A DNA stretch of 64,000 nt from an uncultured Winogradskyella sp. (GTDB taxonomy: Bacteria; Bacteroidota; Bacteroidia; Flavobacteriales; Flavobacteriaceae), in assembly GCF_913055905.1 (NCBI RefSeq), contig NZ_CAJXLB010000007.1; one strand, written 5' to 3'. Positions 1-14,117 of the stretch are shown in pieces. Made by a program: the position numbers and the translations under genes. Within the stretch, counting starts at the first letter, position 1; every line of letters begins with the position of its first letter. The notes under the pieces are model-generated. The model did not search any database and was not told the DNA's origin. It saw only the letters and a program-made list of their open reading frames with translations.

Positions 1-267
1 GAACTTAGAAGGACTGATAAGACACTTGACGGATATGTAATTGACAGCTTGACATACCAGTACAATCGACATGAAATTCGACTTCTGAATGAGAACTCAG
101 CAAACTCTTTAATAGTGAAATTCGACATTTACATTGACGAAATTGAATCGAGCTTAATCATTGGATATTATGACTATGAAGTGAATTTTCAAGGCGAGTT
201 CATAGACGAATTCTTAGTCTTCCAAAATGACATGGAAAATAAAAAAACGCTTGCCAACAATGGCTAA
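1..267 (+). CDS. Hypothetical cassette protein, 5'-truncated by the window edge
   Basis: Frame is open from position 1 (ELRRTDKTLDG...) to TAA at 265-267, which lies inside the repeat (tail KKTLANNG*). Confidence 0.7.
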   Translation, partial: ELRRTDKTLDGYVIDSLTYQYNRHEIRLLNENSANSLIVKFDIYIDEIESSLIIGYYDYEVNFQGEFIDEFLVFQNDMENKKTLANNG

Positions 268-383
268 GAAAACATGCGGGCTAACAGAGTAAAATGAAAT
301 TTAGTACACCAAATAAAACTTGTCCCTCGGTTGACAAATACGTGTTCCAAAACCCGCACGTTTCTTAGCCGTGGCCGTTATGG
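252..383 (+). repeat. attC-like site 1
   Basis: TGCCAAC at 252-258; arms GGCTAAGAAAACATGCGGG (262-280) and CCCGCACGTTTCTTAGCC (353-370); GTTATGG at 377-383. Confidence 0.85.
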
Positions 384-408
384 GCAAGGCTAAAACGACC
401 GAAAAACA

Positions 409-1014
409 ATGAAACTTAAAAACATATTTACAGACAATAAGACAAAAGTTTTTGTGGTGACTAACCAAGACGAAGAAGATGAACTTAATTGGACTATTGA
501 ACCGACTGACTTTGACCTTTTGCCAGAAGAAGAGAATGTTTATTACGTAAAAGCATATCAAGTTTCTGCTGACGGCACTTACGATTGTTACCTTGGTATA
601 ATGACACCTGAAAGAATTGCTGAGACTGTTGTAAAGAAAGAACCAAGCGGACAAATCGTTGCAGAAAGTATATACGAACAAGAACAAACTATAATTCCAG
701 CAGTTGCTTCTGACTGTTTTGGTGACTATGAATTGTTTTACGCAAAAGAAAATCCTCAAATTGGAATTGACGTTTTAAAAGACGGACTAACAAAAGCGTC
801 AAACAAGAACATTGTTGCAGAAGACTTGGGATATGTTTTGAGGGACGAGAAAAGAATTGAAGAAGCAATTGACGCATTTAAAATTAGTGAGCAGACTGGA
901 CCTTCTTCAGAGTATGTTTTCCTTGAACTTTCAAGACTATATCGCGAAATTGGACAAAAAGAAAATGAACTGAAATACAAAGAAAAATTTAAGGTGAGTG
1001 GCGGAATTGAATAG
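409..1014 (+). CDS. Cassette protein with a C-terminal TPR-like helical region
   Basis: 201 aa; AEDLGYVLRDEKRIEEAIDAFKIS...YVFLELSRLYREIG pattern resembles a TPR. Confidence 0.7.
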   Translation: MKLKNIFTDNKTKVFVVTNQDEEDELNWTIEPTDFDLLPEEENVYYVKAYQVSADGTYDCYLGIMTPERIAETVVKKEPSGQIVAESIYEQEQTIIPAVASDCFGDYELFYAKENPQIGIDVLKDGLTKASNKNIVAEDLGYVLRDEKRIEEAIDAFKISEQTGPSSEYVFLELSRLYREIGQKENELKYKEKFKVSGGIE

Positions 1015-1027
1015 AAGAAAAAGCCCA

Positions 1028-1162
1028 GCCCATAACAAAGCATATAGCTTATGGCGGGTAAACGGTTATCAGCAAGGTTTTCGCTTCGTAGCCAGCTTTG
1101 GTTTCGGTGGACAGGAAAGTGCTTCGAAACCGCCACAAGCCATATGCAAACCGTTACCCAAC
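1028..1162 (+). repeat. attC-like site 2
   Basis: GCCCATAAC at 1028-1036; arms GCATATAGCTTATGGCGG (1040-1057) and CCGCCACAAGCCATATGC (1130-1147); GTTACCCAAC at 1153-1162. Confidence 0.88.
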
Positions 1163-1178
1163 ATTTGACCAAACAATA

Positions 1179-1625
1179 ATGAGAAGGAAAAGACTACAAC
1201 ATAATGCTGACATTTTTTGCGATATGTTCGCTGGTTGGAAAATAGTGAACGATATGAAATCTTTGGTTGAATTGGAAAGTGGAATCATTGAATTTGATTT
1301 CCTGAATAGAACTCAAAAACTCAACAATGCGGAATCGAAAACTGACTTTAATATGTTTTATGAAATTTCGGAATGGTTTGCGGACGATTTAAAAAAGCAC
1401 AATATCGAAACGGAATTTATTAAAGAGGCAAAAGTAAAGGCGGAATTTAAAGTTGAATTTACTGCTGGAAAAAAGAAGTCTCGAACGAAAGGAATTACTG
1501 AACTATATCTGAATTTAAACTCTTGGATTTTAACAGACGAAAAAGAATATAAATCGGAAAAAGAAGAAACTCAAGAATTTCACCATATTGAACGGAAAGA
1601 AAAAACGTTGGGTAACAATGTATAA
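1179..1625 (+). CDS. Hypothetical cassette protein (148 aa)
   Basis: ATG at 1179 is preferred because the ORF-track start at 1098 lies inside site 2; the stop lies inside site 3 (tail KTLGNNV*). Confidence 0.75.
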   Translation: MRRKRLQHNADIFCDMFAGWKIVNDMKSLVELESGIIEFDFLNRTQKLNNAESKTDFNMFYEISEWFADDLKKHNIETEFIKEAKVKAEFKVEFTAGKKKSRTKGITELYLNLNSWILTDEKEYKSEKEETQEFHHIERKEKTLGNNV

Positions 1626-1745
1626 CCGCAATTACGGCGGATTCGACTACGTCCGAATCCACTCGGAATTGCTAACGTCTGTGTCAAACCGAAAATAATC
1701 GCTAATTTAACCCGCAACTGACGGTTATACTAGACCGTTACCTGC
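1607..1745 (+). repeat. attC-like site 3 (family A)
   Basis: GTTGGGTAAC...GTTACCTGC; 67 nt (1613-1679) are identical to 2271-2337. Confidence 0.9.
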
Positions 1746-1767
1746 AAGTTAAACCGACATTCTGCAA

Positions 1768-2259
1768 ATGAAAATCATCTTTCAAGTCATATTATTTCTA
1801 TTCTCATCTAGCTTCTGCTTTGCTCAAGAAATGACAAAGCGTGAATTAAAAAATATGATAAAGGAATCGAAATTGGAATATCGGAAAAATGGATATTCTT
1901 ATTTTTCTAAAATACTGACAAATAATAAAGACAGTCTTTTTTTCAAAGCTGACCGAATTGAAATTTACTCAAGTAATGCCATAACATCTGAAAAGGGAAT
2001 CTGCCGAACGGTTGAATTAAAATTCTTGAAGAACAAAAAAGTGAATTTTATTGATTGCCAAACTTGCACTGAACCATCTTCGTGTTACGTTACAACTGAT
2101 AAAAATGTTTACAAATACTATATTCAAGAAATTGAAAACGAATTATTTATTCTTTTCAAAAACAAATACTACGAAATGAATTTTAAAGTAATTTCTGCAA
2201 AAGAAAATGAACTGAATCACAGAAAATATCGTGAAATAAAATTAGAGCGAATTGAATAA
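1768..2259 (+). CDS. Secreted hypothetical cassette protein
   Basis: 163 aa; signal peptide-like N-terminus (MKIIFQVILFLFSSSFCFA-QE). Confidence 0.75.
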   Translation: MKIIFQVILFLFSSSFCFAQEMTKRELKNMIKESKLEYRKNGYSYFSKILTNNKDSLFFKADRIEIYSSNAITSEKGICRTVELKFLKNKKVNFIDCQTCTEPSSCYVTTDKNVYKYYIQEIENELFILFKNKYYEMNFKVISAKENELNHRKYREIKLERIE

Positions 2260-2265
2260 AAACCA

Positions 2266-2403
2266 GCAGGTAACAATGTATAACCGCAATTACGGCGGAT
2301 TCGACTACGTCCGAATCCACTCGGAATTGCTAACGTCAGTGCTAAACCGAAAAACATTAACTTTAATCCCGTAACTGACGGTTATACTAGACCGTTAGCA
2401 CCA
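2266..2403 (+). repeat. attC-like site 4 (family A)
   Basis: GCAGGTAAC; arms GTATAACCGCAATTACGG (2278-2295) and CCGTAACTGACGGTTATAC (2369-2387); GTTAGCACCA at 2394-2403. Confidence 0.9.
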
Positions 2404-2405
2404 AT

Positions 2406-3164
2406 TTGAAAAAACTAAAAACCTTGAAAAAAATATCATTACTGCTCATAGCTATTACATTTCTATATTCCTGTAAAAAGTTGGAAAAAGAAACAACCAG
2501 AAATCAATCTGAAACAAAAATTGAGAAAAAATTATATGCAGAAACTGAAAGTAAAATAAAAAAATATAGAGAAGATTCTCAAAAGTATTGGGATAAAAAT
2601 GATAGCGAAAATGCTCTGAAATATGGCGACTCAATTAAGTCAATTATTCTAAACAGTTACATCAACGATTATGAATTTAAAACTGTTGAGAACACTATCT
2701 ACAATACGATTGAAAGAAAAAAGCCTCTTTTCTTACAAGTTACGGCATCTTGGTGTGCACCTTGTAAATTTGAAGTTCCTGCATTAAATAAAATAGTTGA
2801 GAAATATAGTGACAGGGTAGATTTTGTTCTTCTATTTTGGGACACTCAATCGGATTTAGAAAAGCTTGCGCCTGATTATAATAAGAATATATATCTAATT
2901 CCTTCTCAAGAACAACAATCTGAAGCGACCACAATTGATATTTCTGGATTTAGACACATTATGGGTTTTCCAACAAATTATTTGATTACAAGAGAAAATA
3001 AAATAATTAACTTTTCCCAAGGAGCAATGATTCCGACAACCTACACAGACCAAAACGGAAAAGAAATTACAATTACGAAAGAAGTTGCCGACCAAAAGAA
3101 TTATGAAAGACTTGAAAAAGAAATCAAAGAATTAATTGAAAAAACTGGTGCTAACAATGTATAA
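2406..3164 (+). CDS. Lipoprotein with a TlpA/thioredoxin-like domain (cassette)
   Basis: Lipobox-like LYS-C; WCAPC redox motif; TTG start at 2406 or 2424; stop lies inside site 5 (tail KTGANNV*). Confidence 0.8.
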   Translation: MKKLKTLKKISLLLIAITFLYSCKKLEKETTRNQSETKIEKKLYAETESKIKKYREDSQKYWDKNDSENALKYGDSIKSIILNSYINDYEFKTVENTIYNTIERKKPLFLQVTASWCAPCKFEVPALNKIVEKYSDRVDFVLLFWDTQSDLEKLAPDYNKNIYLIPSQEQQSEATTIDISGFRHIMGFPTNYLITRENKIINFSQGAMIPTTYTDQNGKEITITKEVADQKNYERLEKEIKELIEKTGANNV

Positions 3165-3307
3165 CCGCAATTACGGTGGATTCGACTACGTCCGAATCCA
3201 CCCCGCCTTGCCAGGCGTGGCAGGTCGGAATTGCTAACGTCAGTTCTAAACCGAAAATTAACGCATATTAACCCGTAACTGACGGTTATACGAGACCGTT
3301 GGCTGTA
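3146..3307 (+). repeat. attC-like site 5 (family A, with a 23-nt hairpin insertion)
   Basis: TGGTGCTAAC...GTTGGCTGTA; near-identical to sites 3 and 4 apart from the extra 3202-3224. Confidence 0.9.
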
Positions 3308-3309
3308 AT

Positions 3310-3837
3310 ATGAAAAAAATCGCGATTATAATATTAACATTGAATTTCAACCTTGGATTTGGACAAGTTGAAATTCCTTTTTTTGAACAAATCGCTTTTG
3401 ATTTTTACAAGGACAGTCTATTGACAAAATTCCCTGTAGAAAAACGAATAAAAATTCCAAAATATACGACTGACTTTCACTTCTCGTCTTATAAATTTCA
3501 AGTTAACGAATGTCTGACTGGAGAATTATTGACAGAGGGAAAAGAATTGGAAATTTTCGGGATTTATGCTCTAGAACAAATGGATTTTGATTCGCCAACT
3601 CACAAAATGAATTATGAAAACTTGGATAAAAAACAGTTTCGGATTAAAAAATCAAGTAGCAATCTGAATTTAAGAATTTCCCAACCCTATCATAAAAAAG
3701 ATTACTTTGAGAATTTTTACGTAATTATATCGGAAAATTATAAAAGAAAAAATATCACATACTATTTATTAATAGACAAAAACGGAAAGATAAAAAATTG
3801 GTGCAGAAAAGAATCGGAAATGATAATAATCCATTAG
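3310..3837 (+). CDS. Secreted hypothetical cassette protein
   Basis: 175 aa; signal peptide-like N-terminus ending GFG-QV. Confidence 0.75.
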   Translation: MKKIAIIILTLNFNLGFGQVEIPFFEQIAFDFYKDSLLTKFPVEKRIKIPKYTTDFHFSSYKFQVNECLTGELLTEGKELEIFGIYALEQMDFDSPTHKMNYENLDKKQFRIKKSSSNLNLRISQPYHKKDYFENFYVIISENYKRKNITYYLLIDKNGKIKNWCRKESEMIIIH

Positions 3838-3853
3838 TGATTAAAAAAAATAC

Positions 3854-4041
3854 TACAGCCAACACCGGCTATAGTTCATTGCTACTCGCCTACTTCAATT
3901 TAAAATTTTTCTTACTTTTAATACTTAAACATAAAGAGGAATGATTTCGTTACGCTGTTTGCTTCGCACGTGTGGAAAAAACTAGCAACGCTTCGCAAAC
4001 CAACAACCGCAACGAAACCATAGCCCAAACCGTTAGCAAAC
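3854..4041 (+). repeat. attC-like site 6 (family B)
   Basis: TACAGCCAAC; arms GGCTATAGTTCATTGC (3867-3882) and GCAACGAAACCATAGCC (4009-4025); GTTAGCAAAC at 4032-4041. Confidence 0.88.
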
Positions 4042-4046
4042 ATATC

Positions 4047-4661
4047 ATGCAAAACCCAAAGCTACTTTACCTTATTCTAATAATAATTCTAAGCTCTTGT
4101 TCTAAAGAAAAAAAGTCTGTGCCAACTAAAGAATTCAAAACAAAACAAATTGACACTACCAAACTTTACCATAGAACAAAAGTTATCTATGAAAAGGATA
4201 GTCTGAACTATAAGGAAATTGAAGTCTACGTTTCAAAAGAAAATGACACCATTGTGAATCAATGGAAAAAAATTGAAAACGGAAAGATAGACAGTTCTCA
4301 AAGCAAGTTTTATAACCTAAAACTGATAGGTAAGAAAAGTGATTCTATTTTGACTGGACAAATAAGTTTTTATTCACCTGGCGACAGTATTCCAGATTCA
4401 AAAATATATACGAGATTCGTGACTTTCACTTTTCTTCAACCAGAAAAAGATTCTTTAGTTTTTAAAGAAATTAAGTCCGACAAAAATATAATTGACTTTA
4501 AATATCGTATAATTGACAGCTTAGGTTTTATGGGATTTATATCTGACTTAAGAGCCACCAAAATTGATAGCTTACCCGAACAATCTCTTGTAAATAGAAA
4601 CTACTTTGCTGTGGATACGGATATTTGGACTAACAACACATTTGTAGAAATTGTAAAATAA
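4047..4661 (+). CDS. Hypothetical lipoprotein (cassette)
   Basis: ATG at 4047 (MQNPKLLYLILIIILSS-C); the ORF-track start at 3972 lies inside site 6. Confidence 0.75.
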   Translation: MQNPKLLYLILIIILSSCSKEKKSVPTKEFKTKQIDTTKLYHRTKVIYEKDSLNYKEIEVYVSKENDTIVNQWKKIENGKIDSSQSKFYNLKLIGKKSDSILTGQISFYSPGDSIPDSKIYTRFVTFTFLQPEKDSLVFKEIKSDKNIIDFKYRIIDSLGFMGFISDLRATKIDSLPEQSLVNRNYFAVDTDIWTNNTFVEIVK

Positions 4662-4667
4662 AAATAC

Positions 4668-4853
4668 GTTTGCTAACACCGGCTATAGTTCATTGCTACT
4701 CTCCTGCTTCAATTTAAAATATTTCCTACATTTAGTACCTAAACATATAAGCAATTATTTCGTTTTGCTATTTGCTTCGCACGTGAGGAGAAAACTAGCA
4801 ACGCTTCGCAAACCGCAAACCGCAACGTAATCATACGCAAACAGTTGGTAACA
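4668..4853 (+). repeat. attC-like site 7 (family B)
   Basis: GTTTGCTAACACCGGCTATAGTTCATTGCTACTC shares its arm with site 6; right core GTTGGTAACA at 4844-4853. Confidence 0.85.
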
Positions 4854-4902
4854 ATACCTATGGCACGCATCCACCGCACTACGTACTTGTGTGTCTGCTT
4901 AA

Positions 4903-5059
4903 TGTTCCTAACAGGCACACAGTACGACTGTATATTCGTTAACGTGCCATCGGCACTATACCCAACTATGGATATAACGAATATACCTCTAATGGCTACT
5001 ATTACTAATTACAGCAAGCTGTCAACGTAACTCGCCATATCCGTGTGCCTGTTACCTGC
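4903..5059 (+). repeat. attC-like site 8, atypical, closing a gene-less unit
   Basis: Perfect 12-bp IR TAACAGGCACAC (4909-4920) / GTGTGCCTGTTA (5043-5054); inner perfect 12-bp IR 4930-4941 / 4975-4986; right core GTTACCTGC at 5051-5059. Confidence 0.6.
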
Positions 5060-5142
5060 AATATCCCAAGAGAGTATGGCATCGTTATTAAAGTAATAAC
5101 AAAACTAATGACTAATATATTTGGTGACATCAAAAATCTCTT

Positions 5143-5168
5143 TAAATTTGCAACCGAATGAACGTTCA
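5143..5168 (+). promoter_or_regulatory. Bacteroidota -7 box plus candidate TetR operator
   Basis: TAAATTTG at 5143-5150 fits TAnnTTTG (a second copy TATATTTG at 5116-5123); perfect palindrome TGAACGTTCA at 5159-5168, 6 bp before the tetR ATG. Confidence 0.6.
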
Positions 5169-5174
5169 CTTTGT

Positions 5175-5744
5175 ATGACGAAAAAAGAAAAAATATTAAA
5201 AATAGCGCTGGAATTAATTGTAAATCAAGGAATCCAAGAAACACCAATGTCGCAAATCTCAAAAGTTTCAGGTGTAGCTATGGGGACAATATATCATCAT
5301 TTTAAAAGCAAAAACGAAATAGTAAACGCCATTTATATCTACCTGAAAAAAGAAATGGGAAATGCGCTTTTAGAAGAAAAAGATAGTTCTAAAGATTACA
5401 AAGCACTCTTCTACCAATTTTGGAACAACCTATTTGAGTTTTACCAAAAGAACGAAATGGCCTTTAAGTTTTTACAAAGATTTGTGCAATCGCCACTTAT
5501 TTCTGATGAAACAAAAGTTGAAGGACTTGAACATTATAAACCAATCATTTCATTTTTTGAAGAGGGATTACGAAACAACATTCTAAAACCTATTGACATT
5601 GTACTATTAACAGAAACAATTCACGGAAATATAGTTTCATTAGTGCAAATTCACTTCCAGCAAACAATAGTAGTAAATAAAAAAATCATTGACCAAGCTA
5701 TTGATATGTCTTGGAGCAGTGTTGCAAACAAAAATTATGAATAA
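5175..5744 (+). CDS. TetR/AcrR family transcriptional regulator
   Basis: N-terminal HTH KEKILKIALELIVNQGIQETPMSQISKVSGVAMGTIYHHFKSK; ATG at 5175. Confidence 0.92.
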   Translation: MTKKEKILKIALELIVNQGIQETPMSQISKVSGVAMGTIYHHFKSKNEIVNAIYIYLKKEMGNALLEEKDSSKDYKALFYQFWNNLFEFYQKNEMAFKFLQRFVQSPLISDETKVEGLEHYKPIISFFEEGLRNNILKPIDIVLLTETIHGNIVSLVQIHFQQTIVVNKKIIDQAIDMSWSSVANKNYE

Positions 5745-10565: not shown

Positions 10566-11141
10566 ATGAAAAACTTAATTCTAATAATTATTTCATTAAC
10601 ATTCTTCAACTCTTTTAGCCAAGAGTCAAAAGATTTCATAAAATCAGAGGACTATTATTTAACGGAAATTGACCCACTAACAATGAAAAAATATTGGGAA
10701 AATTTTCCAACTGAAAATGTATTGAAGCCCATTCCTATTTATTTAAAAGATAAAAACGGAAAAACACTTTATGAAATTAAAATATCAGAGTTGGAATTTT
10801 ATAGCGGAACTTCAATTGAGGTTTTGGATATTGATAATTTGAAGGACATTGAACAAATAATACATTTGGAATCCGGTTACGATGCTTGTTGCACTAGTTA
10901 TTATTCGACTTATTTGCTCAAAGCAAAAGATGGAAAATTAATTAAACTCCCCGAAATTGATAATTTGCATTGTGACGGACCAGAACCAAGATTTGAATAT
11001 AGATTCCCAAATCAAAAATTCGGACATGAAAACCAAATCTTAATGACTAAATCATTCCTAAACGACGATTACAAAGTTGAAAAGGTTGAAATACAAAAAA
11101 CATATTCTTGGAACGGAAAAACATTTGAATTAAAAAAATAA
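10566..11141 (+). CDS. Secreted hypothetical cassette protein
   Basis: 191 aa; signal peptide ending SFS-QE; start 13 bp after the GTT. Confidence 0.75.
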   Translation: MKNLILIIISLTFFNSFSQESKDFIKSEDYYLTEIDPLTMKKYWENFPTENVLKPIPIYLKDKNGKTLYEIKISELEFYSGTSIEVLDIDNLKDIEQIIHLESGYDACCTSYYSTYLLKAKDGKLIKLPEIDNLHCDGPEPRFEYRFPNQKFGHENQILMTKSFLNDDYKVEKVEIQKTYSWNGKTFELKK

Positions 11142-11142
11142 C

Positions 11143-11360
11143 TATTCGCAACAATAGCTATAATTGTTAGCACCAGTTCGCACTGCGTGCTCGTGTCATT
11201 GCTACTCCCCTGCTTCAATTTAAAATTTTTCCTACATTTAGCACCTAAACATAAAAAGGAAGGATTTCGTTTCGCTGTTTGCTTCGCACGTGTGGAAAAA
11301 TCTAGCAACGCTTTGCAAATCGCAAACCGCATAGTAATCATTGACTAGACCGCTGTGCCT
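11143..11360 (+). repeat. Degenerate attC-like site 11 (family B; core GTT mutated to GCT)
   Basis: Body aligns with sites 6 and 7 (CATTGCTACTC...GCTTCGCACGTGTGGAAAAA...CTAGCAACGCT); 31-nt insertion at 11166-11196; right core GCTGTGCCT at 11352-11360. Confidence 0.75.
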
Positions 11361-11364
11361 CATT

Positions 11365-11399
11365 AAAAAACAGAGTCCTTACAAAACGTAAGAACTCTG
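11365..11399 (-). terminator. Intrinsic terminator for the minus-strand gene 11411-11824
   Basis: Stem CAGAGTCCTTAC / GTAAGAACTCTG (11/12) next to A6 at 11365-11370, which is a U-tract on the minus strand. Confidence 0.7.
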
Positions 11400-11410
11400 C
11401 TTGAAAAAAA

Positions 11411-11824
11411 TTACTCTTTAGGCAGAAGCCTCCCACTAACAGGTTCAAGGTCGTACATTACAAAAGTTTCTATTATACTTTCCATATCCTCGTTTTCACC
11501 GTGGTCTTCTTTTCCTTCTTTGGTTTCAAGGAAATTATAGAGGGTTTCTTTTTTATCGTAAGTTGCCCAAACAACAACTGAATTTCTTCCCTCATCGACA
11601 CTAACCTGATAAGCTAGAAGACCATCAGATTTTTTGTCCATTTTCAAAGTCGGAGCTTTTGCAATCCTTACTAAATCATCAAGTTTACCAGGTTTTGCAG
11701 TTGATACTGACATAAAGGTATACGTTGGGCTTTTCATCGTTTTTTTCATTTTTTGATTATTTTTTTGCTTACAAGTGAATGTCAATATTAGTATTGATAA
11801 TAAAACTATTTTATTCAATTCCAT
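11411..11824 (-). CDS. Lipoprotein with an ABM-like (dimeric alpha-beta barrel) domain
   Basis: Lipobox-like LTFT-C; TFMSVSTAKPGKLDDL...YQVSVDEGRNSVVVWATY pattern. Confidence 0.6.
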   Translation of the reverse strand: MELNKIVLLSILILTFTCKQKNNQKMKKTMKSPTYTFMSVSTAKPGKLDDLVRIAKAPTLKMDKKSDGLLAYQVSVDEGRNSVVVWATYDKKETLYNFLETKEGKEDHGENEDMESIIETFVMYDLEPVSGRLLPKE

Positions 11825-11856
11825 TGTTATTAATTTATTTTATTATGGTTTTGATG

Positions 11857-11904
11857 CAAATATAAAATATTATTTCAAATTCATAATATTATTTTGTAAT
11901 TTTG
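11857..11904. promoter_or_regulatory. Divergent -7 promoter boxes
   Basis: CAAATATA at 11857-11864 (TATATTTG on the minus strand) and TAATTTTG at 11897-11904 (plus strand). Confidence 0.5.
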
Positions 11905-11929
11905 TTCATTATAATACTAAATTGACTTA

Positions 11930-12481
11930 ATGAAGCTTACATTACTTAAAGATATAATTGAACTAATAGAGGACTTTCAAACTTCAAACGACTCTGAAAA
12001 AATAGAAGATTTCACAATCTGGCTCAACAACAAATTGTTTTCGTTAAATCATAGTGAAGAGCACTCAACTCACGATGAACTATTGATTGCTTTTAAAATA
12101 ATGTTGCTAAATAAAGAACTGAAAAAACAGACAAAAAACGTTTTATCGAAATCAAATGTGTCGTCCATTGATGAATACAGCTTTTTATTACACTTGAATT
12201 ACCAAGAAAGCTTCAGAAAAATGGAGTTAGTGGATTTGCACAATCTTGAAGCACCAACGGGAATAGAAATTATAAAAAGACTTCTAAAAAATAGGCTGAT
12301 TGACGAATTTCCAGATAAAGAAGACAAAAGGGCAAAAAGAATAAAAATAACAAAAAAAGGAATTGCGGAGTTGGAATCAATTAAACCAAGAATTGATTCA
12401 ACTTTTATGAAATTGACAGAACCTCTTAACCTGAATGAAAAAATTCAAATTAGTGGCCTTCTAGATAAACTGATACATTAA
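11930..12481 (+). CDS. MarR family winged-helix regulator
   Basis: PTGIEIIKRLLKNRLIDEFPDKEDKRAKRIKITKKG wing motif. Confidence 0.85.
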   Translation: MKLTLLKDIIELIEDFQTSNDSEKIEDFTIWLNNKLFSLNHSEEHSTHDELLIAFKIMLLNKELKKQTKNVLSKSNVSSIDEYSFLLHLNYQESFRKMELVDLHNLEAPTGIEIIKRLLKNRLIDEFPDKEDKRAKRIKITKKGIAELESIKPRIDSTFMKLTEPLNLNEKIQISGLLDKLIH

Positions 12482-12490
12482 GAAATAACA

Positions 12491-12499
12491 AGGCACAAC
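12491..12499 (+). repeat. Remnant left core of the last cassette site
   Basis: AGGCACAAC 10 bp after the MarR stop; its reverse complement GTTGTGCCT matches 11352-11360 at 8/9. Confidence 0.55.
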
Positions 12500-12709
12500 T
12501 AAGAACTGAATTAAAAAAGCACCTTTTTCTTCGAAAAATACATCCTGTGATTTAAATTACACATCATCCTTTAACTCTGGAAAAATCTCGTTTTAGTTTA
12601 TAGCGTGGTTAAAACGAGGTTATAACCATATTATAGCAATGCAAACCTGTTTAGTAAGTACCTAAGATTTGCTCAATAATAGAACGGAAAGACTAAAGGC
12701 CACAAAGAT

Positions 12710-14098
12710 TTATTTCCCGATGCAAAAATTAGCAAATATATTCCCCAAGAGGTCATCGGTCGTAATCTCGCCGGTAATCTCTCCAAAGTGATGAAGAGCC
12801 TGTCGTATATCTATCGCCAACAAATCGCCTGAAAGTCCAGTTTCCAATCCTTCCTTAACCTTTTGGATTTCTTCAAAGGCCTTAATCAGAGCATCATAGT
12901 GCCTAGTATTGGTCACAATAGTGTCATTGTTCCGTAAGGCGCCAGTATTGATTAAATTTAAAAGAGTCTCGGTAAGTTGTTCTATACCAAACCCGGTCTT
13001 AGCAGAGAGCAGCAGGACATCAGGAATGGTTGTATTAATCTCAGCAAGCTGCATATCGTCTAATACATCTATCTTATTGGCAATAACCAATAAAGGCTTT
13101 TGAGGATATTTGTTCCTAATTTTTTCAATCTCAATTCTTACGCTTTCCAAATCAGCAATTTGTTTGGCAGCATCAAATAGGAATATGGTGACTTGCGACT
13201 GCTCGATTTTTTCAAACGTCTTTTTTATGCCTATGGACTCAACAACATCTTCGGTCTCTCGTATACCTGCCGTATCTATAAAGCGAAATCCTATTCCTCC
13301 TATAGAAATCTCGTCTTCAATGGTATCACGTGTAGTACCAGCAATTTCCGATACAATAGCACGCTCATCATTGAGCAAGGCATTGAGCAACGTAGATTTT
13401 CCCACATTAGGCTCACCCACAATAGCGACAGGAATGCCGTTCTTTATCACATTGCCCACAGCAAACGAATCAATAAGACGCTTAAGCACAAAACTAATGC
13501 GGTCAATGAGTTCCTTAAATTGGGTTCTGTCTGCAAATTCTACATCCTCTTCAGCAAAATCAAGTTCCAACTCAATGAGGGAAGCAAAATTCATAAGCTC
13601 TTCCCTAAGCCTAGAGATTTCAGAAGAAAAGCCACCACGCATCTGTTGCATGGCAATTTGATGTGCCGCCTCGTTATCACTAGAAATTAAGTCGGCAACA
13701 GCTTCTGCTTGGCTCAAATCCAATTTTCCATTTAAAAAAGCTCGTAGCGTAAATTCTCCAGGCGATGCCATCCTGCAACCCTTTCGTAAAAAAAGCTGTA
13801 TGATTTCTTGCTGTATATAGGTTGAACCATGGCACGATATTTCCACAACATCTTCACCTGTGTAAGATTTCGGATTTTTAAATAGCGATACCAATACCTC
13901 ATCCAAGGTTTTCATACCGTCTACTATATGCCCCAAATGTATGGTATGCGTAGCTTGCTGTTTTAAATCTTTTCCACTAACCGATTTAAAGTTTTCGGAC
14001 ACAAGGGCAATAGCAGCCGGGCCGGACAGTCTAATAACTGCTATGGCGCCGCTTCCTGATGGTGTCGCTAAGGCTATTATGGTATCTTGATGAGACAT
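12710..14098 (-). CDS. mnmE: tRNA modification GTPase MnmE (TrmE)
   Basis: DTIIALATPSG, GEPNVGKSTL, GTTRD, DTAGIR and C-terminal FANFCIGK. Confidence 0.98.
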   Translation of the reverse strand: MSHQDTIIALATPSGSGAIAVIRLSGPAAIALVSENFKSVSGKDLKQQATHTIHLGHIVDGMKTLDEVLVSLFKNPKSYTGEDVVEISCHGSTYIQQEIIQLFLRKGCRMASPGEFTLRAFLNGKLDLSQAEAVADLISSDNEAAHQIAMQQMRGGFSSEISRLREELMNFASLIELELDFAEEDVEFADRTQFKELIDRISFVLKRLIDSFAVGNVIKNGIPVAIVGEPNVGKSTLLNALLNDERAIVSEIAGTTRDTIEDEISIGGIGFRFIDTAGIRETEDVVESIGIKKTFEKIEQSQVTIFLFDAAKQIADLESVRIEIEKIRNKYPQKPLLVIANKIDVLDDMQLAEINTTIPDVLLLSAKTGFGIEQLTETLLNLINTGALRNNDTIVTNTRHYDALIKAFEEIQKVKEGLETGLSGDLLAIDIRQALHHFGEITGEITTDDLLGNIFANFCIGK

Positions 14099-14117
14099 CT
14101 AATTCAATTATACTCTG

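Follow-up and report, generated by a model that had tools for sequence, protein, structure and literature searches.

A probable mobile gene-cassette array of integron-like organization in a Winogradskyella-like flavobacterium

Integrons are the textbook gene-capture system: co-oriented, mostly promoterless cassettes of a single open reading frame (ORF) each end in an imperfect palindrome, attC, with inverted cores ...AAC and GTT... (RYYYAAC / GTTRRRY), a crossover at G/TT and an R box that is complete only in the circular cassette. In classical attC sites each arm has an unpaired central spacer (UCS) of 5–6 nt, the L'' arm bears two or three extrahelical bases (G16, T23/24) that a 6-bp stem keeps apart, and the bottom strand folds better than the top by 2.12 kcal/mol (PMC5027507). 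Acquisition of the I2 helix is regarded as what let the integrase, IntI, use single-stranded hairpin sites (PMC7790495). Published surveys of Bacteroidetes report only lone integrases and one complete integron, with almost no integrons or clusters of attC sites lacking integron integrases (CALINs), and a published survey places Bacteroidota among the clades without integrons. Here we describe an array of gene cassettes in a 64,000-nt stretch of DNA from an uncultured Winogradskyella sp. (contig NZ_CAJXLB010000007.1; the whole stretch is called the window) and compare it with these and other recombination systems.

We consider it probable that window positions 1–4850 are the distal part of a chromosomal array of mobile gene cassettes, at least 11 kb long, in a Winogradskyella-like flavobacterium, that this array works in an integron-like manner with exchange within GTT/AAC and a folded bottom strand as substrate, that it is served by a 376-amino-acid (aa) Xer/IntI-like recombinase, assigned by homology with relatives, and that it falls outside the IntI/attC family as defined. 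The likeness to classical integrons extends to the co-oriented, mostly promoterless single-ORF cassettes, each ending in an imperfect palindrome, to the inverted cores, the crossover point and the R box completed in the circle, to the better folding of the bottom strand (by 1.6 kcal/mol here) and to an attI-like site adjoining a tyrosine recombinase of the Xer/IntI branch. The typical site length of ~125 nt is similar to that of the Vibrio cholerae repeats (VCRs).

Unlike classical attC, the sites have spacers of 3 nt on one side and 5–6 nt on the other and an L box that is conserved in sequence (G-K-N-T-A-W). An extrahelical G and T are not obligatory on the L'' arm; the stem instead contains two conserved G·T wobbles, at positions 7 and 12, and a bulge is sometimes present on the opposite arm. 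In the recombinase the IntI insertion is missing and an extra N-terminal domain is present; its gene lies upstream of the cassettes and co-oriented with them, the attI-like site follows its stop codon, and a small partner gene is conserved. Three elements by which IntI/attC systems are defined are therefore absent: the IntI domain, the UCS of 5–6 nt on each arm and the L'' extrahelical bases. The reverse integrons of Treponema (Spirochaetota; PMC3607928) share the orientation of the integrase gene with the cassettes, but are described as having a true IntI with an additional domain and classical attC. Xer recombinases give the best sequence and fold matches to our enzyme (XerA 5hxy and 4a8e, and assignment to NF040815), but they lack its N-terminal domain, and arrays of co-oriented 125-nt hairpins with cassette-specific R boxes are not part of Xer systems, which rely on a single 28-bp duplex dif or on alternating pdif sites.

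Site geometry and strand bias

Seven co-oriented short ORFs lie in window 1–4850, each followed by a long imperfect palindrome (125–185 nt) that in all seven sites is bounded by a cassette-specific stretch ending in AAC on the left and by GTT on the right. Read on the top strand, a site consists of a cassette-specific R'' ending in YAAC, a 3-nt spacer, the L'' arm (G-K-N-T-A-W...), a variable centre, the L' arm, a 5–6-nt spacer and GTTR..., with Y before AAC and R after GTT in most sites. Sites 3, 4 and 5 form family A, sites 6 and 7 family B, and sites 1 and 2 are singletons. The left-arm 18-mer of family A is present in at least 120 stretches of a species-representative genome collection, nearly all from marine Flavobacteriaceae, together with Algoriphagus, Roseivirga and one member of the Lewinellaceae; the sites at these loci are co-oriented within each locus and form arrays. 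Seeding with loci that hold a family A site and then filtering for arm complementarity, a strand-neutral filter, gave a large set of 173 non-redundant sites from more than 100 Flavobacteriaceae genomes. Outside the window, the site detectors required AAC and GTT to be present; the strict regular-expression detector overlooks variant sites near recombinases, the relaxed detector yields ~0.08 false matches per kb per strand, and site counts are lower bounds.

An earlier note on this DNA held that the sites are built to fold on the bottom strand, with A opposite C on the top strand at the arm mismatches. Every arm mismatch in the window fits this description (A on the left, C on the right). The large set is biased in the same direction: 276 transition mismatches in the arms are wobble pairs on the bottom strand (top-strand A·C) and 21 are wobble pairs on the top strand (binomial P ~ 7 × 10−58). 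They are located at stem position 7 (84 mismatches) and position 12 (92, and a further 35 at position 13 in sites whose register is shifted by a bulge), positions at which there are just 5 and 10 transversions. When the 92 gap-free sites are read as bottom strand, standard pairs occupy 96% of cells, compensatory changes occur at 15 of the 16 stem pairs, and G·U is the commonest pair at both position 7 (67/92) and position 12 (84/92). Because the arms differ by A (left) and C (right) at these two positions, only the bottom strand closes the stem with two G·T wobbles. The earlier note had also described an extrahelical T on the bottom strand; this bulge occurs in only about a quarter of the sites, and the conserved hallmark is instead the pair of wobbles at positions 7 and 12.

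Both strands were folded with DNA parameters. For the window, the bottom- and top-strand energies are −19.3 and −15.8 kcal/mol (site 1), −19.0 and −19.3 (site 2), −21.1 and −18.1 (site 3), −22.3 and −19.8 (site 4) and −32.4 and −31.3 (site 5), and for sites 6 and 7 in circularised form the bottom strand is the more stable by 7 kcal/mol. The bottom strand is the more stable in 137 of the 173 sites, by a mean of 1.6 kcal/mol (Wilcoxon P = 3 × 10−16), in agreement with sites built for bottom-strand folding. A similar advantage has been published for classical attC (PMC5027507), so this property does not set the sites apart. The geometry of the spacers and extrahelical bases does differ, both from the published description and from a control, the verified aadA1 attC, in which the same script found spacers of 5/6 and, on the left, two extra bases in the arm. 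The cassettes and sites of the window, all on the plus strand, and the strandless element that ends the array are as follows.

1–377, plus strand: 3' part of cassette 1, which starts left of the window; ORF end at 267 (gene call L001 5989–6339, which ends at window 267)
252–383, plus strand: site 1; R'' TGCCAAC with AAC end at 258, spacer AAT, arms GGCTAAGAAA(A)CATGCGGG / CCCGCACGTTTCTTAGCC with one extra A in the left arm and one A·C mismatch, spacer GTGGCC, R' GTTATGG with its G at 377
378–1153, plus strand: cassette 2; ORF 409–1014 (201 aa; no Pfam family for the protein) plus site 2
1030–1159, plus strand: site 2; AAC end 1036, R' G 1153, spacers AAA / AAACC, no bulge, A·C mismatches at stem positions 7 and 12
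1154–1737, plus strand: cassette 3; ORF 1179–1625 (148 aa) plus site 3
1610–1743, plus strand: site 3, family A; AAC end 1616, R' G 1737, spacers AAT / TAGACC, right arm with an extra A
1738–2394, plus strand: cassette 4; ORF 1768–2259 (163 aa) plus site 4
2268–2400, plus strand: site 4, family A; AAC end 2274, R' G 2394, spacers AAT / TAGACC
2395–3298, plus strand: cassette 5; ORF 2424–3164 (246 aa, weak thioredoxin/redoxin matches) plus site 5
3149–3304, plus strand: site 5, family A; AAC end 3155, R' G 3298, spacers AAT / GAGACC, central 23-nt G+C-rich insertion
3299–4032, plus strand: cassette 6; ORF 3310–3837 (175 aa) plus site 6
3857–4038, plus strand: site 6, family B; AAC end 3863, R' G 4032, spacers ACC / CAAACC, right arm with an extra A
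4033–4844, plus strand: cassette 7; lipoprotein-like ORF (called 3972–4661) plus site 7
4671–4850, plus strand: site 7, family B, degenerate; AAC end 4677, GTT G 4844, right arm CATACGC, spacer AAACA
4845–5060, no strand assigned: terminal ORF-less element at the array end, closed by GGTAAC (4847–4852) and GTTACC (~5051)

The asymmetry of the internal loop, 3 nt on the left and 5–6 nt on the right, had also been noticed earlier and is confirmed by these coordinates. It recurs beyond the window: when every combination of spacers was scanned without regard to strand in 773 kb of related arrays, hits peaked at 3/6 (124), followed by 3/5 (24), against a background of 2–15. Throughout the large set the left spacer is 3 nt, and the right is 6 nt in 125 sites and 5 nt in 48, with the consensus A-A/C-Y on the left and RAAMMC on the right. 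The extra bases in the window lie where the earlier note had placed them (one A in the right arm of families A and B, one in the left arm of site 1, none in site 2). No extra base is found in 92 of the 173 sites (53%); a single one lies in the right arm in 42 (24%) and in the left arm in 6 (3%), and 33 have other arrangements. Read as a bottom-strand base, the right-arm extra base is mostly T near position 10 or G at position 7. A search of Rfam with the sites matched no family.

Cassette structure and mobility

Over ~14 nt (15 nt for cassette 2), the beginning of each cassette and its own R'' are reverse complements, the integron-type signature in which the R box is complete only in the circle. 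A set of 260 cassettes from 120 genome loci has a median size of 790 bp. In 204 of them, at least 6 of the 7 nt beyond GTT are complementary to those beyond AAC. The ORF of 236 of the 260 lies on the strand of the site, compared with 24 on the opposite strand. What different genera have in common is the site families, not the ORFs.

Cassettes are exchanged at the conserved GTT, as in integrons. We aligned contigs of other public metagenomes (runs X1–X4) to the window and found cassette 7 at an identity of at least 99% in X2 (mangrove), X3 and X4 (microbial mat); in X2 and X4 it stands behind different site ends (...GCATATAAACAA and ...CCCATACACCAAA), the match starting at 4031/4032, the G of G/TT. 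A 92%-identical copy of cassette 6 in X4 starts exactly at 3298 with other sequence before it, and the site 2 module is matched exactly from AAC (1034) to GTT (1155) in other metagenomes, where the sequence to either side is not the same. Run X2 also contains the same array end (4798–5300, five differences) without cassettes 1–4 and 6, which shows that close relatives vary in cassette content at this locus.

Word depth in run X1, relative to unique cassettes, is ~12-fold for the right arm of family B and 2–4-fold for the family A sites (3895–4071 and 2302–2478), indicating many more copies of these site families in the array of the organism or in the community. Joints in run X1 were considered as excision products and set aside, being mostly explained by the repeated site families and the window edge. 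Contigs of X1 and X2 join ~3318 to ~3847 (window 3317–3848), giving a mini-cassette with the R' start and R'' end of cassette 6 and no ORF; this could be an ORF-less variant from elsewhere or a deletion between A-runs.

The recombinase in related loci

Clustering of large ORFs over 120 array loci returned one recurrent protein, a tyrosine recombinase, and no protein of the IntI type. The earlier note had predicted a divergent integrase, and in relatives this enzyme does head arrays of the same site families. The array-adjacent recombinase is 376 aa long and belongs to a large uniform family with the domains Phage_int_SAM_4 and Phage_integrase. Its best family is NF040815, the XerA model (211–238 bits against a cut-off of 220), a generic model with the product name 'site-specific tyrosine recombinase/integron integrase' through which NCBI names the members. 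The integron integrase model TIGR02249 scores 188–215 bits, below its cut-off of 265, and matches in two stretches with profile positions ~180–255 skipped. The alignment with VchIntIA is also in two pieces, with 21 aa in the recombinase where IntI has 64, and a 30-sequence alignment of the family contains no IntI-specific insertion. At that place an AlphaFold model (pLDDT, the per-residue confidence score, 77) has only a short beta-hairpin. The best full-length structure matches, XerA 5hxy and 4a8e, extend from end to end, and the fold search hit just the Xer/IntI core. The N-terminal domain (~105 aa) is beta-rich, with strands and helices spanning residues 6–72 in the model; it has no Pfam match, and the fold search gave none outside the Xer/IntI core.

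Arrays with the same site families start 45–90 nt after the recombinase gene, which is co-oriented with the cassettes. In Algoriphagus (L070) the order is recombinase, short palindrome, ACAAAC, GTTACCTGC, ORF and family A site; in two complete genomes (L208 and L209) the recombinase is followed by GATAAACGCAATTGYGTTTATC, ~5 nt, GTT and then 3–6 chained cassettes, one of which has a family A site. A palindrome followed by 3–8 nt and GTT, 44–88 nt past the gene, occurs in 23 of 31 close metagenomic relatives compared with 7 of 31 more distant ones, and the attI-like motif is lacking in relatives of lower identity (44–57%, mostly from freshwater or wetland metagenomes). The arms of the palindrome are similar to the L box, so that on the bottom strand cassette sites and attI-like site alike read AAC, a spacer of 3–8 nt and L box. 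The first-cassette R'', complementary to the bases after the attI-like GTT, lies 0.4–2.3 kb downstream and is followed by the L box. All 15 sites detected downstream of the recombinase gene are on its strand and none is on the other. Many contigs end no more than 150 nt from the gene, as would be expected at the onset of repeats.

Just upstream of the recombinase, at 35 or more loci, a protein of ~126 aa is encoded divergently (for example, L208:9547–9927, minus strand; L209:9547–9930, minus strand; L011 4846–5220; L035 568–936). It has an N-terminal cysteine motif, CLxCGKxLxGRSDKKYCDxxCKSSYQY (C-x2-C...C-x3-C), belongs to no family in Pfam or NCBIfam, and could act as a partner of the system or regulate it. 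Two copies of the 376-aa recombinase (P0010 and P0045) are encoded in one genome (a 3.27-Mb contig).

Unrelated phage or CTnDOT-type integrases lie 2–3 kb from several of the recombinase loci and arrays (L208:6841–8160, L209:7299–8585, L067:6377–7690, L069:2772–4106); those 2–3 kb upstream were rejected as the enzyme of the system, as they are not conserved. A 284-aa recombinase divergent from the arrays in Flagellimonas (L109 and L120) is without the N-terminal domain or an attI-like site and was treated as a separate element; in L120 it is followed by an ORF with, as judged by eye, a serine-recombinase-like N terminus.

Proposed mechanism and alternative explanations

The cassette boundaries show that cassettes are exchanged by site-specific recombination within the GTT/AAC triplet; to judge from the mismatch asymmetry, we propose that the substrate is the folded bottom strand. 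One recombinase protomer would sit on the R-box duplex and one on the L-box duplex, across the 6/3 internal loop, with cleavage in the bottom-strand AAC. The wobble pairs and the asymmetric 6/3-nt loop, rather than extrahelical bases, would identify strand and orientation. The wobbles lie at nt 17 and 22 from the R'' start and the extrahelical bases of classical attC at 16 and 23/24 (PMC5027507), and the former may be functional counterparts of the latter. The presumed enzyme is the 376-aa Xer/IntI-like recombinase without the I2 helix, encoded just upstream of the cassettes in relatives, and its putative attI-like site, after the recombinase gene, would consist of the L-box palindrome, 3–8 nt and GTT.

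We give roughly even chances to a broader reading: a second lineage of integrons, carried by marine Flavobacteriaceae as well as some Cytophagia and Saprospiria, that either arose independently or is a relative of IntI dating from before I2. In this lineage a Xer-type enzyme without I2 would recombine folded single-stranded sites by reading the two G·T wobbles, as latent flip-out bases, and the 6/3 loop, possibly helped by the N-terminal domain and the cysteine-rich partner. It would entail a large cassette metagenome that has been overlooked because enzyme and sites both lie outside current detection models. The near-zero counts in Bacteroidetes suggest that surveys of the IntegronFinder type miss these sites. 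A literature search found no published description of such arrays (subscription-only papers were not covered), and this widespread, integron-like system is apparently undescribed. If the reading is correct, a natural and widespread Xer-type cassette system without I2 would allow a direct test of the evolutionary account built on that helix and would provide a second solution to the choice of strand and orientation, by wobble pairs and an asymmetric loop. Abundant marine bacteria would hold a large unannotated pool of cassette genes, such as an MmeI-like restriction–modification cassette, and current integron finders would be blind to a whole phylum.

Several points weigh against the proposed mechanism and against the assignment of the window array. 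The main objection is the absence of I2, which implies either double-strand recombination or another solution, such as the N-terminal domain or the partner protein. The folding advantage of 1.6 kcal/mol is modest, the nearest-neighbour parameters for G·T pairs in DNA are approximate, and the top strand folds better in 33 of the 173 sites. The A·C bias could alternatively serve to weaken hairpins in the sense mRNA. There is no recombinase or integrase in the 64-kb window or in the 134-kb metagenomic contig that contains it and that begins inside the array, and the link between the 376-aa recombinase and the window array rests on their common site families. At several recombinase-adjacent loci, moreover, the downstream sites were overlooked by the detectors.

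One alternative is a system with the same cassettes and Xer-like enzyme in which double-stranded sites are recombined as in Xer/dif or pdif, and in which the palindromes and the A/C asymmetry serve orientation or weaken the sense-mRNA hairpins. The enzyme is closest to XerA and without the I2 helix, the attI-like site could be an ordinary duplex site, and the energy difference between strands is small. We nevertheless regard this explanation as unlikely. Any mismatch would give asymmetry, yet positions 7 and 12 almost always carry the pair-keeping transition (276 against 21), with transversions only 5 and 10 times, and compensatory changes are spread over 15 of 16 stem pairs. Spacers of 3 and 6 nt cannot both be duplex, and the sites measure 125 nt, not 28 bp; tens of them, co-oriented, lie between accessory ORFs, where Xer/dif is defined by a single short duplex site in each replicon, to which housekeeping Xer proteins bind. 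Hairpin substrates are not at odds with a Xer-type enzyme, since XerCD acts on a folded single strand in the integration of CTX phage.

The head of the window array was not recovered, and the AAC/GTT cores, the cassette logic and the bottom-strand bias are all integron-like, as they would be in a classical integron with unusual attC whose true IntI lies further left, outside the window, the Xer-like gene of relatives being a bystander. Within 45–90 nt after that gene, however, lies a site that has the same L box and GTT, and the first cassette comes next; no IntI-type protein emerged from the clustered ORFs of the 120 array loci, and IntegronFinder surveys report almost no integrons in Bacteroidetes, which together make this explanation very improbable. 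Least credible of all is that the palindromes are non-mobile intergenic repeats, such as repetitive extragenic palindromic (REP)-like elements or terminators, that merely separate genes. They are indeed intergenic and repeated, with the same families across genera, but their flanks show cassette-specific complementarity, they are strictly co-oriented in arrays adjoining a recombinase, their transcribed strand is the weaker folder and they match no Rfam family. Reshuffling at exact boundaries between samples contradicts such a role unless the boundaries are assembly artefacts, and neither REP elements nor miniature inverted-repeat transposable elements (MITEs), as defined, account for the flank complementarity and the precise exchange of genes.

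Surroundings of the array

In the 134-kb contig (L001), the array continues for 6 kb further left with five more sites, and the left end of the contig falls inside a repeated site, within the array; contigs break at repeated sites. To the right, a TetR gene at 5121, past the array end, is followed by ordinary chromosomal genes, among them those for proteins with type IX secretion system (T9SS) tails, MnmE (90% identical to that of Winogradskyella aurantia), UvrA and a tricorn protease. An attempt to reach the array head by synteny failed, as it is precisely towards the array that the neighbours of MnmE diverge in two Winogradskyella genomes, and the TetR and epimerase genes are absent from the loci examined. 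In a comparison of window 11000–14100 with L210 and L211, one side of mnmE is syntenic with other Winogradskyella and the array side is different; judged by this gene order, the array sits in a variable region that starts at mnmE.

The ORF of cassette 7 is likely to start at the ATG at 4047, as a typical lipoprotein signal (MQNPKLLYLILIIILSSCSK) results from that start; the GTG of the public call (3972) sits inside site 6. The bottom strand of the terminal element (4845–5060) folds at −35.7 kcal/mol (z = −3.6), and the element could represent half of a displaced attI or a last site that has degenerated. After it comes GTTACCTGCAAT, which resembles the cassette starts GTTACCTGCAAG at window 1737, at L001 1748 and in the first cassette of L070. 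The central insertion of site 5 is a 23-nt G+C-rich hairpin (CCCGCCTTGCCAGGCGTGGCAGG, window 3185–3210) in otherwise A+T-rich surroundings. Left of the window, one cassette of the array is a gene for an MmeI-like type IIL restriction–modification protein (1071 aa; L001 1870–5085), and the ~100 nt of non-coding sequence before its site (L001 5084–5190) are kept in arrays of other genera. The motif AAAAAGCCAACCGCACA recurs near cassette starts (L001 ~1770, L143 and L149).

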